From Escherichia coli (GTDB lineage Bacteria; Pseudomonadota; Gammaproteobacteria; Enterobacterales; Enterobacteriaceae), in the NCBI RefSeq assembly GCF_003334355.1, contig NZ_QOWP01000021.1: a stretch of 64,000 nt of DNA; one strand, written 5' to 3'. Position 1 is the first letter of the stretch. Every line of letters begins with the position of its first letter. A program made the translations under genes and the position numbers. The notes under the pieces were generated by a model that worked only from the letters and a program-made list of their open reading frames with translations, ran no database searches and was not told the DNA's origin. Below, piece by piece: positions 8,805 to 39,928 of the stretch.

Positions 8805-9467
8805 TTAATTGCCAGCCATCGCCTGCTGGATAATGGGAATTGGCGTCAGTAAATGCTGGCGCATTAACTCACTGGCGCGCGCGGTATCTCGCGCCAGTAC
8901 CGCCGCAGTCAGGGTCTGGTGCTGATCGTGTTTATCCTCCAGCATTTCCACCGAAAGCACCGTTCGCCGCAGCCAGATAAATCGATAACGCGCCGCCAGA
9001 TCAAACAACCGTTCACGCATTTGCAGCAAATAGTGAGAACCACAGCCCGCCACAATTGCCGTATGAAACGCCTGATGACGCAGATCCCACTCATCAAGCA
9101 TTTTCTCGCTGGCGTCACAGGCCTCAAGCTTACTCAGCAGATGCGCTTTTGCGAGAACGTCTGCCTCCCACTCATCGCCACCGCGGGCAATCGCCAGACT
9201 CACTAACATCGCTTCCATATTGGCGCGGGCGTCGAAAATATCGAGCAGCTCCTGCTCTGACATAGACGCCACCCGATACCCTTTTTGATTCACCACCGTG
9301 ACCAGCCGTTCCGCCACCAGTTGCGAAAGAGCTTCCCGTAACGGCCCAACGCCAAGTGCATAACGCGATGTCAGCAAACTCATTCGTAATTTTTCATCCG
9401 GTTGAAAATTACCGCGAATAATATCGTTCTTCAGCCAGCGATAGCCATCCAGAGACGTAATGGTCAT
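8805..9467 (-). CDS. csiR: GntR-family repressor CsiR (GabC)
   Basis: ORF track 226 aa; start set at MTITSLDGYRWLKNDIIRGNF (220 aa); lies downstream of gabP. Confidence 0.85.
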   Translation of the reverse strand: MTITSLDGYRWLKNDIIRGNFQPDEKLRMSLLTSRYALGVGPLREALSQLVAERLVTVVNQKGYRVASMSEQELLDIFDARANMEAMLVSLAIARGGDEWEADVLAKAHLLSKLEACDASEKMLDEWDLRHQAFHTAIVAGCGSHYLLQMRERLFDLAARYRFIWLRRTVLSVEMLEDKHDQHQTLTAAVLARDTARASELMRQHLLTPIPIIQQAMAGN

Positions 9468-9487
9468 GGTGTGACTCCTGATCATGA

Positions 9488-10888
9488 TCAGCGCGTATTA
9501 TGAACGGGTGTTTTTTGCCACAATACCAGCTTTTTCCAGCGAGCCATAATTGGCACGGTACAGATAATCCCTATCGCTAATAAGCCGGTGGAGATCACTT
9601 CTAACTGTTGCGCCGGACGGAATAGCATCACTACCAACACAAAGGTAATAAAGCCGATGACTAGCCAGGTGAGCCACGGATAAAGCCACATTCGCAAGCG
9701 AATTTCGCTTCCTTCTGCTCGCAGAATTTTGCGCATCCGCAACTGTGAAACGGCGATGACTAAATAAACCAGCAGGGCGATAGCGCCGGAGCTGTCGATC
9801 AGAAATTTAAATACCTTCGCAGGCGCGTAATAGTTCACCACCACCGTTAAGAATGCCGCGCCGGTGGAGAGTAACACCGCCACGTACGGGGTTTTACTGC
9901 GGTTGATTTTACCCATTACCGCGGGAGCATCACCGCGACGACTTAAGGAGTAGAGCATCCTTGACGCGGTATACAGCGCCGAGTTCAGGCAACTGGTTAC
10001 GGAAAGTAATATCACGCAGTCCATGATTAATTTCGCATGGGGAATATTGAGCAATTCCAGTACCGAGCGATAAGAACCGACGGCTTTTAGTCCGGGCATA
10101 TTCCACGGAATTAATGCCACGACGACAAAAATAGAACATAAATAGAAGATAGAAATACGCCAGATAACCGAGTTGGTGGCGCGGACAATATGTTTTTCCG
10201 GCGTGTCGGATTCCGCGGCGGCAATGGTGACAATTTCTGCGCCCATAAACGAGAACATGGTGATCAACATCGCGCTTAATACCGCACCGAAACCGTTGGG
10301 CATAAAGCCGCCGCTATCCCACAATCTTGAGATCCCGCTCACTTCGGCATACGGGTAAAAACCGCTAATTGCGACTGCACCAAGGAAAATAAAGGCCAGG
10401 ATAGCGATGACTTTGCACAGCGCCAGCCAGAACTCAAATTCGCCGTAGTTTTTAACGCTTAATAAGTTACTGCCAGTTAAGGCGAGGGTAATGACGAGGG
10501 AAAATAACCAGATGGGAATGCCTGGAACCCATGAGTGCAGGATCATGGCGGCGATGTTGGCTTCCAGCGGGATAACCAGTACCCAAAACCACCAGTACAA
10601 CCAGCCGATGGTATAGCCCGCCCAGCGACCAATGGCTTTATCGGCATAGGTGGAAAACGAACCGGTATCGGGCGTGGCAACCGCCATTTCCGCCAACATC
10701 CGCATAATCATAACCACCAGTAGCCCGGCGAACAGATAGGCCAGTAATACCGCCGGGCCCGCTTCGGCGATGGCGACGCTGGAACCGACAAACAGACTTG
10801 CGCCGATAACACCGGCAATAGACAACATGGTGACGTGGCGTGACTTCAGCCCGCCGCCTAACTCATGTGGTTGCGATGATTGCCCCAT
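9488..10888 (-). CDS. gabP: GABA permease GabP (APC-family transporter)
   Basis: ORF track 487 aa; start set at MGQSSQPHELGGGLKSRHVTMLSIAGVIG (466 aa); polytopic membrane protein. Confidence 0.9.
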   Translation of the reverse strand: MGQSSQPHELGGGLKSRHVTMLSIAGVIGASLFVGSSVAIAEAGPAVLLAYLFAGLLVVMIMRMLAEMAVATPDTGSFSTYADKAIGRWAGYTIGWLYWWFWVLVIPLEANIAAMILHSWVPGIPIWLFSLVITLALTGSNLLSVKNYGEFEFWLALCKVIAILAFIFLGAVAISGFYPYAEVSGISRLWDSGGFMPNGFGAVLSAMLITMFSFMGAEIVTIAAAESDTPEKHIVRATNSVIWRISIFYLCSIFVVVALIPWNMPGLKAVGSYRSVLELLNIPHAKLIMDCVILLSVTSCLNSALYTASRMLYSLSRRGDAPAVMGKINRSKTPYVAVLLSTGAAFLTVVVNYYAPAKVFKFLIDSSGAIALLVYLVIAVSQLRMRKILRAEGSEIRLRMWLYPWLTWLVIGFITFVLVVMLFRPAQQLEVISTGLLAIGIICTVPIMARWKKLVLWQKTPVHNTR

Positions 10889-11035
10889 CCTGAATCCTCT
10901 CGAAAGTGTGTCACTTGGGAGAGCGCCCCGACATTTCCCGCGCCGGGTCACGCGTATAATTGTTATTGATTCTTTTTGCCGGAGAGCGGCTCCGCCTTAC
11001 CCGGCCAACATAGATTTCTTCCTGTTCACGTACAG

Positions 11036-11116
11036 ATTGTCGGATGCGGCGTAAACGCCTTATCCGACCTGGATCCCCGTAGGCCGGACAAGACGCGCAG
11101 CGTCGCCTCCGGCATA
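11036..11116. repeat. REP/BIME element (two inverted REP units) between gabT and gabP
   Basis: tgtcggatgcggcgtaaacgccttatccgacc followed by gtaggccggacaagacgcgcagcgtcgcctccggca; classic GCCGGATG/CGGATAAGGCG REP motifs. Confidence 0.6.
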
Positions 11117-11125
11117 GGAGCGGCG

Positions 11126-12406
11126 CTACTGCTTCGCCTCATCAAAACACTGGCTGATGATCTCCAGACCCTGACGGATCTGAGCGTCTTCAATGGTGAG
11201 CGGTACAAGGATGCGCAGCACGTTGTAATACGGGCCGCAGGAGAGAAGAATCAGGCCTTTATCGCGGGCGCGAGCCACGATCTCGGCGGTGAGTTTGGCG
11301 TCCGGCTTGTTGTGATCGCCGTCTTCAAACAGCTCAATGGCGATCATCGCCCCCAGCCCGCGTACGTCGCCGATCTCCGGGTGTTTTTCGGCTATCGCCA
11401 GCAATCCGTCTTTCAACTTCTGCCCCAGATCGTTGGCTTTTTGCAGCAGATTTTCCTGCTCAAACACCTTCAACACTTCCAGCGCAGCCACGCAGGCAAT
11501 CGGGTTACCCGCATAGGTGCCGCCCAGACCGCCTGGAGCGACGGCATCCATTACTTCCGCGCGCCCGGTGACGCCCGCCAGCGGGAAGCCGCCCGCGATC
11601 GATTTCGCAAAGGTGGTAAGATCCGGCGCAACGCCCATCTGCTCCATCGCAAACAGCGTGCCGGTACGCCCCGCGCCGCTCTGCACTTCATCGGCAATCA
11701 GCATGATCCCGTGCTCGTCACACAGAGCGCGTAAACGCTGCATAAAGGCTGGCGACGAGGCGTAGAAACCGCCTTCGCCCTGAACCGGCTCAATCACGAT
11801 GGCGGCGATATCTTCCGGCGCGGCATCATTTTTGAAGATCCGGTGGATGCTGGCGATAGCGTCATCCTCGCTTATGCCGTGCAGCGGGCAAGGATAAAGC
11901 GCGCGATAAACATGACCCGGCATCAGCCCCATGCCCGCAGAGTACGGATTCACCTTGCCGGTCAGCGCCAGCGTGTAATGCGTGCGCCCGTGATACGCGC
12001 CGCTAAAAGCGATGGTGCCGCTACGTTTGGTGGCGGCGCGGGCGATTTTTACCGCGTTTTCCACCGCTTCGGAACCGGTCGTAACCAGCAGCGTTTTCTT
12101 GGCGAAATCGCCCGGCACCTTCTGATTCATAATCTCGCACAGCTCCAGATACGGCTCGTAAGCCAGCACCTGGAAGCAGGTGTGCGACAGTTTTTTCAAC
12201 TGCGCTTCCACCGCGGCCACCACCTTCGGATGCAGGTGCCCGGTATTGAGCACCGCAATCCCGCCCGCGAAATCAAGATACTCACGGCCTTCAACGTCCC
12301 ACACCCGGCAGTTTTCCGCGCGGTCAGCGAAAATCGGGTGAATTTGCCCAACGCCACGGGGAATCGCCTGACTGCGGCGCTGCATTAACTCTTTATTGCT
12401 GTTCAT
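11126..12406 (-). CDS. gabT: 4-aminobutyrate aminotransferase GabT (PLP-dependent)
   Basis: ORF track 428 aa; start at MNSNKELMQRRSQAIPRGVG (426 aa). Confidence 0.95.
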   Translation of the reverse strand: MNSNKELMQRRSQAIPRGVGQIHPIFADRAENCRVWDVEGREYLDFAGGIAVLNTGHLHPKVVAAVEAQLKKLSHTCFQVLAYEPYLELCEIMNQKVPGDFAKKTLLVTTGSEAVENAVKIARAATKRSGTIAFSGAYHGRTHYTLALTGKVNPYSAGMGLMPGHVYRALYPCPLHGISEDDAIASIHRIFKNDAAPEDIAAIVIEPVQGEGGFYASSPAFMQRLRALCDEHGIMLIADEVQSGAGRTGTLFAMEQMGVAPDLTTFAKSIAGGFPLAGVTGRAEVMDAVAPGGLGGTYAGNPIACVAALEVLKVFEQENLLQKANDLGQKLKDGLLAIAEKHPEIGDVRGLGAMIAIELFEDGDHNKPDAKLTAEIVARARDKGLILLSCGPYYNVLRILVPLTIEDAQIRQGLEIISQCFDEAKQ

Positions 12407-12419
12407 TCGCATTCTCCAG

Positions 12420-13868
12420 TTAAAGACCGATGCACATATATTTGATTTCTAAGTAATCTTCGATGCCATACTTCGAACCTTCACGACCCAGACCCGAGGC
12501 TTTGATGCCGCCGAACGGGGCCACTTCATTGGAAATAATGCCGGTATTGATGCCGACGATGCCGTACTCCAGCGCTTCGCCCACGCGGAAGACGCGGCTT
12601 AAATCACGGGCGTAGAAATAGGCGGCAAGGCCAAACTCGGTGTCATTGGCTTGCGCAATCACATCAGCTTCATCTTTAAAGCGGAACAGCGGGGCGAGGG
12701 GGCCGAACGTCTCTTCTTTCGACACTTTGGCGTTGGCCGGAACGTCCACCAGAATGGTCGGCTGGAAGAAGTTGCCGCCGCGTTCGTGCGCTTTACCGCC
12801 GCAAACCACGCGCGCGCCTTTCTCCAGCGCATCGGCAATATGCTCTTCCACTTTTGCTACCGCTTTTTCATCGATCAGCGGCCCGATGGTGACGCCGTTA
12901 TCCAGCCCGTCGCCGATGTGCAGTTTGCTCACTGCCTGCTGCAATTTTTCGGCAAAACAGTCATACACGCCGTCCTGCACATACAGGCGGTTGGCGCAGA
13001 CGCAGGTTTGCCCGGCGTTGCGGAATTTCGAGGCCAGCGCGCCTTCCACGGCTTTGTCGAGGTCGGCATCGTCAAAGACGATAAACGGCGCGTTACCGCC
13101 CAGCTCCAGCGACACTTTCTTGATGTCTTTCGCGCACTGTTCCATTAACTGGCGGCCAATTTCGGTCGAACCGGTAAACGACAGTTTCCGCACCAGCGGG
13201 TTACTGGTCAGTTCGTTACCGACCGCGCCCGCCGAACCGGTGACCACGTTAAATACCCCAGCCGGAACGCCCGCGCGGATCGCCAGCTCCGCCAGCGCCA
13301 GCGCAGAGAACGGCGTCTGACTGGCGGGCTTCAGCACCATGGTGCAGCCTGCTGCCAGCGCCGGACCGGCTTTGCGGGTAATCATCGCCGCCGGGAAGTT
13401 CCACGGCGTGATAGCCGCGGTGACGCCAATCGGCTGCTTGATAACAATCAGGCGTTTATCGGCCTGATGACCAGGAATGGTGTCGCCATAAATGCGTTTG
13501 CCTTCTTCGGCAAACCACTCAATAAAGGAGGCGGCGTAGCTGATTTCGCCTTTCGCTTCGGCCAGTGGTTTACCCTGTTCGAGGGTCATCAGGCGCGCTA
13601 AATCGTCCTGATGCTCCATCATCAAATTGAACCAGTTGCGCAGAATGGTGGCGCGTTCTTTGGCGGTGAGCGCGCGCCAGGCGGGCAGGGCGCGGTTGGC
13701 GGCGTCGATAGCGGCGCGGGTTTCATCCGCGCCCATTTTCGGCACGCTACCCAGCTTGTCGCCGTTCGCCGGATTGGTGACGTCGATGGCTTCACCATTG
13801 TTGGCGTCCAGCCATTCCCCGTTAATCAACGCCTGCTGGCGGAATAAGTTACTGTCGTTAAGTTTCAT
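12420..13868 (-). CDS. gabD: Succinate-semialdehyde dehydrogenase GabD (NADP+)
   Basis: 482-aa ORF MKLNDSNLFRQQALINGEWLDA...; aldehyde dehydrogenase family. Confidence 0.95.
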   Translation of the reverse strand: MKLNDSNLFRQQALINGEWLDANNGEAIDVTNPANGDKLGSVPKMGADETRAAIDAANRALPAWRALTAKERATILRNWFNLMMEHQDDLARLMTLEQGKPLAEAKGEISYAASFIEWFAEEGKRIYGDTIPGHQADKRLIVIKQPIGVTAAITPWNFPAAMITRKAGPALAAGCTMVLKPASQTPFSALALAELAIRAGVPAGVFNVVTGSAGAVGNELTSNPLVRKLSFTGSTEIGRQLMEQCAKDIKKVSLELGGNAPFIVFDDADLDKAVEGALASKFRNAGQTCVCANRLYVQDGVYDCFAEKLQQAVSKLHIGDGLDNGVTIGPLIDEKAVAKVEEHIADALEKGARVVCGGKAHERGGNFFQPTILVDVPANAKVSKEETFGPLAPLFRFKDEADVIAQANDTEFGLAAYFYARDLSRVFRVGEALEYGIVGINTGIISNEVAPFGGIKASGLGREGSKYGIEDYLEIKYMCIGL

Positions 13869-19292: not shown

Positions 19293-19368
19293 GGCCCTTT
19301 AGCTCAGTGGTTAGAGCAGGCGACTCATAATCGCTTGGTCGCTGGTTCAAGTCCAGCAAGGGCCACCA
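19293..19368 (+). tRNA. ileY: tRNA with CAU anticodon (ileY-type tRNA-Ile2 / annotated Met-like), 76 nt with encoded CCA
   Basis: GGCCCTTTAGCTCAGTGGTTAGAGCAGGCGACTCATAATCGC...GGTTCAAGTCCAGCAAGGGCCACCA; 7-bp acceptor stem pairs, anticodon loop CT-CAT-AA, T-loop GGTTCAAGTCC. Confidence 0.9.
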
Positions 19369-39565: not shown

Positions 39566-39928
39566 TGGTGGAGCTGGCGGGAGTTGAACCCGCGTCCGAA
39601 ATTCCTACATCCTCGGTACTACATGCTTAGTCAGTCTTTACATTCGCTTGCCAGCTGCGGACGGACACGCCACTAACAAACTAGCCTGATTAAGTTTTAA
39701 CGCTTCAACCCCAGGCAGGGCTTCCACGCGATCTCTTTTGGGTTTGACCTCTCTTGATCCCCGTCCTAAGAGCGGAGGCTAGGGAGAGAGGGCTCTAAGC
39801 AGGTTATTAAGCTGCTAAAGCGTAGTTTTCGTCGTTTGCGACTATTTTTTGCGGCTTTTTACGAGGCCAACCGCCCCTCGGCATGCACCTTGGGTTTCGC
39901 AAATCCCGTCGAATCCAGAATCAGCCCC
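39566..39928 (-). ncRNA. ssrA: tmRNA (SsrA), 363 nt
   Basis: Reverse complement reads GGGGCTGATTCTGGATTCGACGGGATTTGCGAAACCC...tag-peptide region...GGACGCGGGTTCAACTCCCGCCAGCTCCACCA, the E. coli tmRNA with tRNA-like ends. Confidence 0.95.

Follow-up and report, generated by a model that had tools for sequence, protein, structure and literature searches.

The DNA analysed here, called the window throughout, is a stretch of 64,000 nucleotides that carries the gab genes of Escherichia coli on its minus strand. At 10850-11160 it shares 100% identity with E. coli K-12 MG1655 and with many further genomes of the species, and the proteins GabT, GabP, GabD and CsiR all exceed the curated cut-offs of their own NCBIfam equivalogs. 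The genes and the spacer under study are arranged as follows.

12420-13868, minus strand: gabD, by its NCBIfam equivalog
11126-12412, minus strand: gabT, an open reading frame that matches the GabT equivalog NF005985 at 915 bits against a cut-off of 713
11128-11126, minus strand: TAG stop codon of gabT
Between the gabT stop and the gabP start, minus strand: the gabT-gabP spacer, 237 nt
9488-10888, minus strand: gabP, with its ATG at 10888, by its NCBIfam equivalog
8805-9485, minus strand: csiR/glaR, by its NCBIfam equivalog

A preliminary description of this DNA had reported two GC-rich palindromes in opposite orientation at 11036-11116, between the gabT stop and the gabP start, and had named them a BIME, that is, paired REP units. 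The palindromes are there, and the name was apt: the pair is made up of one Z2 and one Y unit and is specifically a BIME-2 module. Its extent was drawn correctly for these two units but too narrowly for the repeat as a whole, which runs on to a third, degenerate unit of Y type at 10977-11009 that had been missed. The REP cluster thus delimited spans the opening 150 nt of the 237-nt spacer, and both originally flagged units are extragenic, lying between the gabT stop (11126) and the gabP start (10888). In mRNA sense the spacer region begins with TAG and continues with cgccgctccta, TGCCGGAGGCGACGCTGCGCGTCTTGTCCGGCCTAC, GGGGAT and CCAGGTCGGATAAGGCGTTTACGCCGCATCCGACA. From gabT towards gabP its parts are these.

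11115-11125, minus strand: pre-REP stretch of 11 nt, CGCCGCTCCTA in mRNA sense, read from the sequence
11079-11114, plus strand: unit B, a Z2-type REP of 36 nt, GTAGGCCGGACAAGACGCGCAGCGTCGCCTCCGGCA, masked edit distance 3
11073-11078, no strand: head-to-head linker of 6 nt, GGGGAT in mRNA sense, read from the sequence
11038-11072, minus strand: unit A, a Y-type REP of 35 nt, CCAGGTCGGATAAGGCGTTTACGCCGCATCCGACA, masked edit distance 4
11010-11037, minus strand: unique, single-copy spacer of 28 nt between the Y unit and the third unit
10977-11009, minus strand: third, degenerate Y-like REP unit of 33 nt, GTTGGCCGGGTAAGGCGGAGCCGCTCTCCGGCA, from allele comparison
10889-10976, minus strand: gabP 5' leader, outside the repeat and single-copy, by alignment

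Few repeats of K-12 are as well catalogued as REP and BIME elements, a task that goes back decades, and that they stabilise and attenuate mRNA is textbook knowledge. Three REP sequences in the gabT-gabP spacer were reportedly described in the original gab sequence paper by Niegemann et al. in 1993 (Arch Microbiol), while a literature search for gabP together with extragenic palindromic elements returned no paper. Rfam at gathering thresholds gave no match within the spacer. The copy of NC_000913.3 that was consulted carries no repeat features, and because a REP at another locus, which is annotated in the GenBank K-12 record, is blank there too, the missing annotation in this copy is uninformative.

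The identity of the units was examined with the E. coli K-12 consensus sequences of Nunvar et al. 2010 (PMC2817692 Table 1), namely GTAGGacgGATAAGgCGttCACGcCGCATCcGGCA for Y and GTAGGcatGATAAGaCGcgcCAgCGtCGCATCaGGCA for Z2. A gapped scan of the whole window on both strands, in which the lower-case, variable positions were masked, gave edit distances of 3 at 11079-11114 on the plus strand and 4 at 11038-11072 on the minus strand, and the next-best sites to either consensus across the 64 kb had a distance of 7. As a control, 100 dinucleotide-preserving shuffles of the window were scanned: the lowest distance in a shuffle was 7 or 8 in 92 (Y) to 94 (Z2) of them, 6 in another 5 to 7 and 5 in a single one for each consensus, and it was never 4 or less (0/100). 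The preliminary description had named failure to match the REP consensus as the outcome that would refute it; its REP reading withstood this check and is upheld by matches that the shuffled windows did not reach. An ungapped scan with another version of the Y and Z2 consensus sequences, allowing at most 3 mismatches, found zero matches in the window, and both units are therefore diverged, imperfect copies. Their stem substitutions come in pairs, and 1 nt has been deleted. Where the stems depart from the consensus, base pairing stays intact (GCCGGA/TCCGGC for unit B, GTCGGA/TCCGAC for unit A), the second stem pair of unit A being altered on both sides from C-G to T-A.

For typing, all positions were counted in an unmasked edit distance. 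Unit A lies 5 edits from Y and 14 from Z2 and is clearly Y-type; unit B lies 6 edits from Z2 and 8 from Y, which makes it Z2, the weaker of the two assignments. The two heads point toward one another over the 6-nt linker, and unit B consequently reads as an inverted copy (iREP) on the gab mRNA. Unit B has the GTAG head (11079-11082), whereas that of unit A is CCAG. Both units retain the AA/GC stem mismatch, which is conserved in REPs and needed for transposase activity (PMC8266576). They match the consensus beyond chance, form imperfect palindromes of 30-40 nt, occupy an extragenic site and recur at high dispersed copy number; all REP features that were tested are present in the two flagged units, save GTAG on Y. 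BIME-2 elements are defined by Y and Z2 units with short linkers in the nomenclature of Gilson, Bachellier and Hofnung (PMC3333891), and the gab pair agrees with this in its Y and Z2 units in inverse orientation, in its short linker of 6 nt and in a tandem module number that differs between strains at this spacer. It does not agree with BIME-1, since the partner unit is 36 nt long and Z2-like rather than a 29-nt Z1 and the 6-nt linker 11073-11078 leaves no room for the BIME-1 L linker with its IHF site.

The third unit, at 10977-11009, has the orientation of the Y unit and the head GTTG. Its masked distance of 7 is the chance level of the window, and it fails the consensus test on its own. We nevertheless accept it as a REP because in strain Z1323HEC0462, where the spacer has the order Z2 - Y - Z2 - Y' and Y' is the third unit, it occupies the Y position right after the second Z2. 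A candidate fourth REP at 10918-10954, noticed as a 74% direct repeat, was rejected: it is present in all alleles, including REP-free ones, is single-copy, and belongs to the gabP leader. On the other side of the cluster, the 11-nt stretch 11115-11125 resembles the inter-module linker TTCGGCGCACCCA of multi-copy alleles, both sharing the pattern ...GC.C.CC.A followed by TGCCGG. If the 11 nt after the gabT stop are indeed such a linker, standing as they do before TGCCGG, the repeat would abut the stop codon itself.

Dispersal of the pair was assessed in 5,426 complete E. coli genomes. The 81-nt segment had matches in every one of them (5,426/5,426), with a per-genome median of at least 40 places; 4,936 records had 40 or more, and each genome had at least one place spanning 80% or more of the REP pair. 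The two units thus align with genomic REP copies. The remaining 147 nt of the spacer were found at exactly one place per genome. The catalogue for K-12 lists about 590 units and 355 annotated clusters (PMC3333891; bioRxiv 10.64898/2026.03.23.713779). Within the window itself, blastn-short with each unit returned no second copy in the 64 kb.

Since K-12 averages roughly one cluster per 13 kb, the window can be called REP-poor: beyond the gabT-gabP cluster, no Y or Z2 site in the 64 kb is closer than 7 edits. Elsewhere in the window, Rfam matches to C4 antisense RNA (84.6 bits) and isrK (76.7 bits) adjoin at 30594-30827 on the minus strand, as they typically do in P4-like or prophage regions, and a tmRNA gene lies at 39566-39928; because of the C4/isrK pair and this gene, a prophage is probably integrated at ssrA. 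Other Rfam matches, ordinary for the region, are the Phe leader (pheL) at 57686-57811, the RyfD sRNA at 61117-61255 and one tRNA gene at 19293-19365.

Species-representative genomes were scanned for the same spacer with the gabP start as anchor, and seven loci were returned. The K-12 arrangement, a single Z2-Y module followed by the unique 28-nt spacer and Y', also occurs in E. whittamii and Pseudocitrobacter vendiensis; E. coli O157:H7 has a K-12-like allele. Module number is thus one in K-12, E. whittamii and P. vendiensis; it is two in E. albertii, three in Escherichia sp. E1V33, and at least four before the contig end in a metagenome-assembled genome (MAG) contig labelled Pseudocitrobacter. 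Variation of tandem copy number between strains at one locus is a known property of BIME-2 (PMC3333891). Within the arrays, internal Y units have GTAG heads and the last Y has CCAG (CCCG in E. albertii). Judged by these alleles, the Y unit of K-12 is a decayed copy, because the internal Y units of the larger arrays have GTAG; and as that head has been lost, the transposase probably no longer acts on it. The cognate REP-associated tyrosine transposase (TnpA_REP) of K-12 is yafM, NP_414763, encoded elsewhere on the chromosome (PMC2817692). The 28-nt spacer 11010-11037 is kept in the REP-bearing alleles of E. coli, E. albertii, E. whittamii and Escherichia sp. E1V33, and the last 85-90 nt or so of the gabP leader are conserved in all alleles, REP-free ones included, and in other Escherichia species. 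Within this leader (10889-10976) a CUCUC can pair with a GAGAG at the ribosome-binding site region; folding predicts no significant structure there (z -1.4).

Part of the species lacks the REP stretch altogether. In 1,302 of the 5,426 E. coli genomes (24%) it is swapped for an unrelated spacer of 310 nt, REPs being present in about 75%, and the replacement spacer is also found in the E. coli representative E69 and in P. faecalis.

L003:256-565, and also in L006, L011 and L009: REP-free spacer, homologous to window 10889-11125

The central ~110 nt of this spacer belong to another palindromic repeat, dispersed to a median of 15 places in each genome. It shows GGGAGAGGG...GGGTGAGGG motifs and the flanks AAAAACGA / TCGTTTTT, and is predicted to fold at -77.7 kcal/mol (z -4.2). 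We take the GGGAGAGGG...GGGTGAGGG motifs to be typical of 'boxC' repeats, and the REP-free insert accordingly looks boxC-type. Because 24% of E. coli genomes are REP-free here and module number drifts between lineages, the exact structure of the cluster is not under strong constraint. The presence of two unrelated palindromes at one site might be read as convergence, in which selection keeps a strong RNA structure that sets the transaminase:permease ratio; we consider this improbable. If it were true, REP and REP-free alleles would give measurably different ratios and would form a natural allelic series for REP function.

Two further observations concern the genomes themselves. Those labelled Pseudocitrobacter (L009, P. 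faecalis; L010, the MAG; L012, P. vendiensis) have spacers and leaders that are almost the same as in E. coli alleles, E. coli-type REPs included, which points to very close kinship, to a gab region acquired horizontally, or to a MAG that is mislabelled or contaminated. In E. coli CUVET20-PYO2 (L005), gabT is annotated as a frameshifted pseudogene and the spacer is K-12-type.

RNA folding, which the preliminary description had proposed as a check, gave stable predicted hairpins for both flagged units: -20.3 kcal/mol (z -3.4) for unit B and -18.8 kcal/mol (z -5.4) for unit A, each with an internal loop at AA/GC. The hairpin predicted for the third unit is unremarkable (-15.4 kcal/mol, z only -1.0). 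The 81-nt pair is predicted to fold at -41.7 kcal/mol (z -4.3), and units A and B can alternatively form one long duplex; the value for the 161-nt cluster is -74.4 kcal/mol (z -4.0). GC-rich hairpins directly past a stop codon could be taken for an intrinsic, Rho-independent terminator that ends the gabDT transcript. This reading is almost certainly wrong: on the mRNA strand no U-run follows any of the three hairpins, whose tails are CAAUCUGUAC and AAAAAGAAUC, and a terminator scan of the spacer found no terminator-like site, by which an intrinsic terminator is effectively refuted. An internal gabP promoter was rejected likewise, as a promoter scan of the spacer found no sigma-70-like site. 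With neither promoter nor terminator detected in the spacer, the level of gabP probably depends on readthrough of the REP cluster from upstream promoters.

Transcript levels were taken from a single public RNA-seq dataset, pooled over conditions (bioRxiv 10.64898/2026.03.23.713779, supplementary file 2). The DESeq2 baseMean values are 85.7 for glaH, 647.6 for gabD, 794.7 for gabT and 89.6 for gabP, and the approximately 9-fold step from gabT down to gabP, two genes of similar length, sits exactly across the REP spacer. Elsewhere, REP hairpins withstand 3' exonucleases and define the 3' ends of many transcripts terminated by Rho (PMC6061677), the REP325 cluster stabilises the upstream yjdM mRNA and partly terminates transcription before yjdN in a Rho-dependent manner, and tandem gene pairs that contain REPs show upstream-biased expression genome-wide (both bioRxiv 10.64898/2026.03.23.713779). 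According to the same study, REP effects depend on context, and short fragments of 2-4 hairpins showed no detectable Rho dependence. The suggestion in the preliminary description that the REPs stabilise upstream mRNA and modulate expression within the operon thus follows the standard view in the literature and fits the ratio of gabT to gabP, but at this locus it is correlative only.

We consider it very probable that the feature is a single-module BIME-2 with a degenerate third Y unit and a likely transcript-stabilising or attenuating effect. A transcript from the csiD and gabD promoters would read through the cluster, and its REPs would fold as separate stable hairpins or as one long REP-iREP duplex. 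Such hairpins would halt 3'-to-5' exonucleases, by which gabD-gabT mRNA ending at the REPs would outlast the gabP portion, and would also partly attenuate readthrough; protection and attenuation together could place the transaminase message several-fold above the permease message. The cluster thus probably helps to hold the gabT transcript about nine-fold above that of gabP, a ratio that is consistent with this role and correlative. We infer that it adds to the step by protection of the gabD-gabT 3' end, by attenuation of readthrough, or by both, on correlative data from one dataset. The ratio could also stem from the action of Rho on a long untranslated spacer, from RNase E cleavage or from intrinsic instability of gabP mRNA. 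The REP-free genomes, the drift in module number, the loss of GTAG from the Y unit and the context dependence of REP effects also count against the explanation. As for origin, REP-associated tyrosine transposases cleave and recombine REPs in vitro, and in the family-level view the units would have been dispersed and amplified by such a transposase together with recombination between copies.

An effect at the level of translation would be compatible with this main explanation. The first stem starts 12 nt past the gabT stop, with a gap of 11 nt between stop and unit, and could slow termination of gabT translation; the fuller version of the idea, in which the hairpin stalls the terminating ribosome and leads to mRNA cleavage, tmRNA tagging and lower GabT, appears rather unlikely to us. 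In its favour, the position of the stem was measured directly from the sequence, and among the alleles in which the gabT stop was read the stop-to-REP distance is 11-12 nt in K-12-type alleles, Z1323HEC0462 and E. albertii and 10 nt in P. vendiensis. All of these lie within the rule of Liang, Rudd and Deutscher 2015 that REPs less than 16 nt from a stop codon impede termination and down-regulate the upstream gene, as summarised in PMC12306157. The transcript level of gabT, the highest of the operon in the single dataset, argues against it.

It is also conceivable, though on balance unlikely, that the cluster is a neutral or selfish BIME-2 decaying in a permissive spacer, with no meaningful effect on gab, and that gabT exceeds gabP owing to the long untranslated spacer. 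The variation between alleles speaks for such neutrality, as the repeat family differs by lineage (REPs in about 75%, the other dispersed palindrome in 24%), module number ranges from 1 to at least 4, one unit lacks GTAG and one is degenerate. However, stable hairpins are transcribed here within an operon whose gabP has no detectable promoter of its own, REP-containing tandem pairs are biased upstream across the genome, and the REP-free allele also has a very stable palindrome (-77.7 kcal/mol, z -4.2), which leaves a structured element in almost all strains.

A role in DNA, again compatible with the stabilising and attenuating cluster that we favour, would make the BIME-2 a site of binding and cleavage by DNA gyrase that manages supercoiling in or beside the operon. 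The make-up of Y and Z2 units corresponds to the class reported as gyrase-cleaved in vivo (Espeli and Boccard 1997, as cited in PMC3333891 and PMC8266576), yet K-12 has a single module here, and a model REP had no chromosome-organising role (bioRxiv 10.64898/2026.03.23.713779). We regard this role as quite unlikely.

The gabT-gabP REP pair is confirmed as real, ordinary and already known in kind. It has little significance beyond correct annotation, by which the spacer holds a BIME-2-type cluster of three units and not two, and it is only mildly interesting for its allelic series and for a second repeat family at the same site in a quarter of strains. The natural alleles, which have no REP and another palindrome, or 1, 2, 3 or at least 4 modules, offer a ready series for tests of REP dosage in an operon.

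Among known systems, the gab cluster is most readily compared with BIME-2, which it resembles in its Y and Z2 types, inverse orientation, short linker, GTAG on Z2, AA/GC mismatch, extragenic and dispersed occurrence and variable tandem number. It differs in K-12 in that it is a single module rather than a tandem array and has a Y head of CCAG; in addition, the unique 28-nt spacer and the degenerate Y in the same orientation break strict alternation, and the cluster therefore borders on an 'atypical BIME'. With BIME-1, or RIP, it shares the inverted REP pair, whereas those elements combine Y and Z1 with a long L linker and an IHF site, and the second unit of gab is Z2-like instead of a 29-nt Z1 and its linker is 6 nt long. 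The malE-malF intergenic REPs are the classic example of genes in one operon that are expressed at different levels on account of REPs, said to have been studied by Newbury et al. in 1987 and by Khemici and Carpousis in 2004. There, as in gab, REPs within an operon lie between genes for a soluble protein and a membrane transporter, and the upstream message is the more abundant; the mal effect is reported to have been shown by deletion and by analysis of decay intermediates, whereas the case for gab consists of a read-count ratio in one dataset. REP325, between yjdM and yjdN, is likewise an intra-operon REP cluster between tandem genes with a proposed dual role as stabiliser and partial terminator. 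It has 12 palindromic units and shows partial Rho dependence only as the full array, in contrast to the gab cluster with its 2-3 units.
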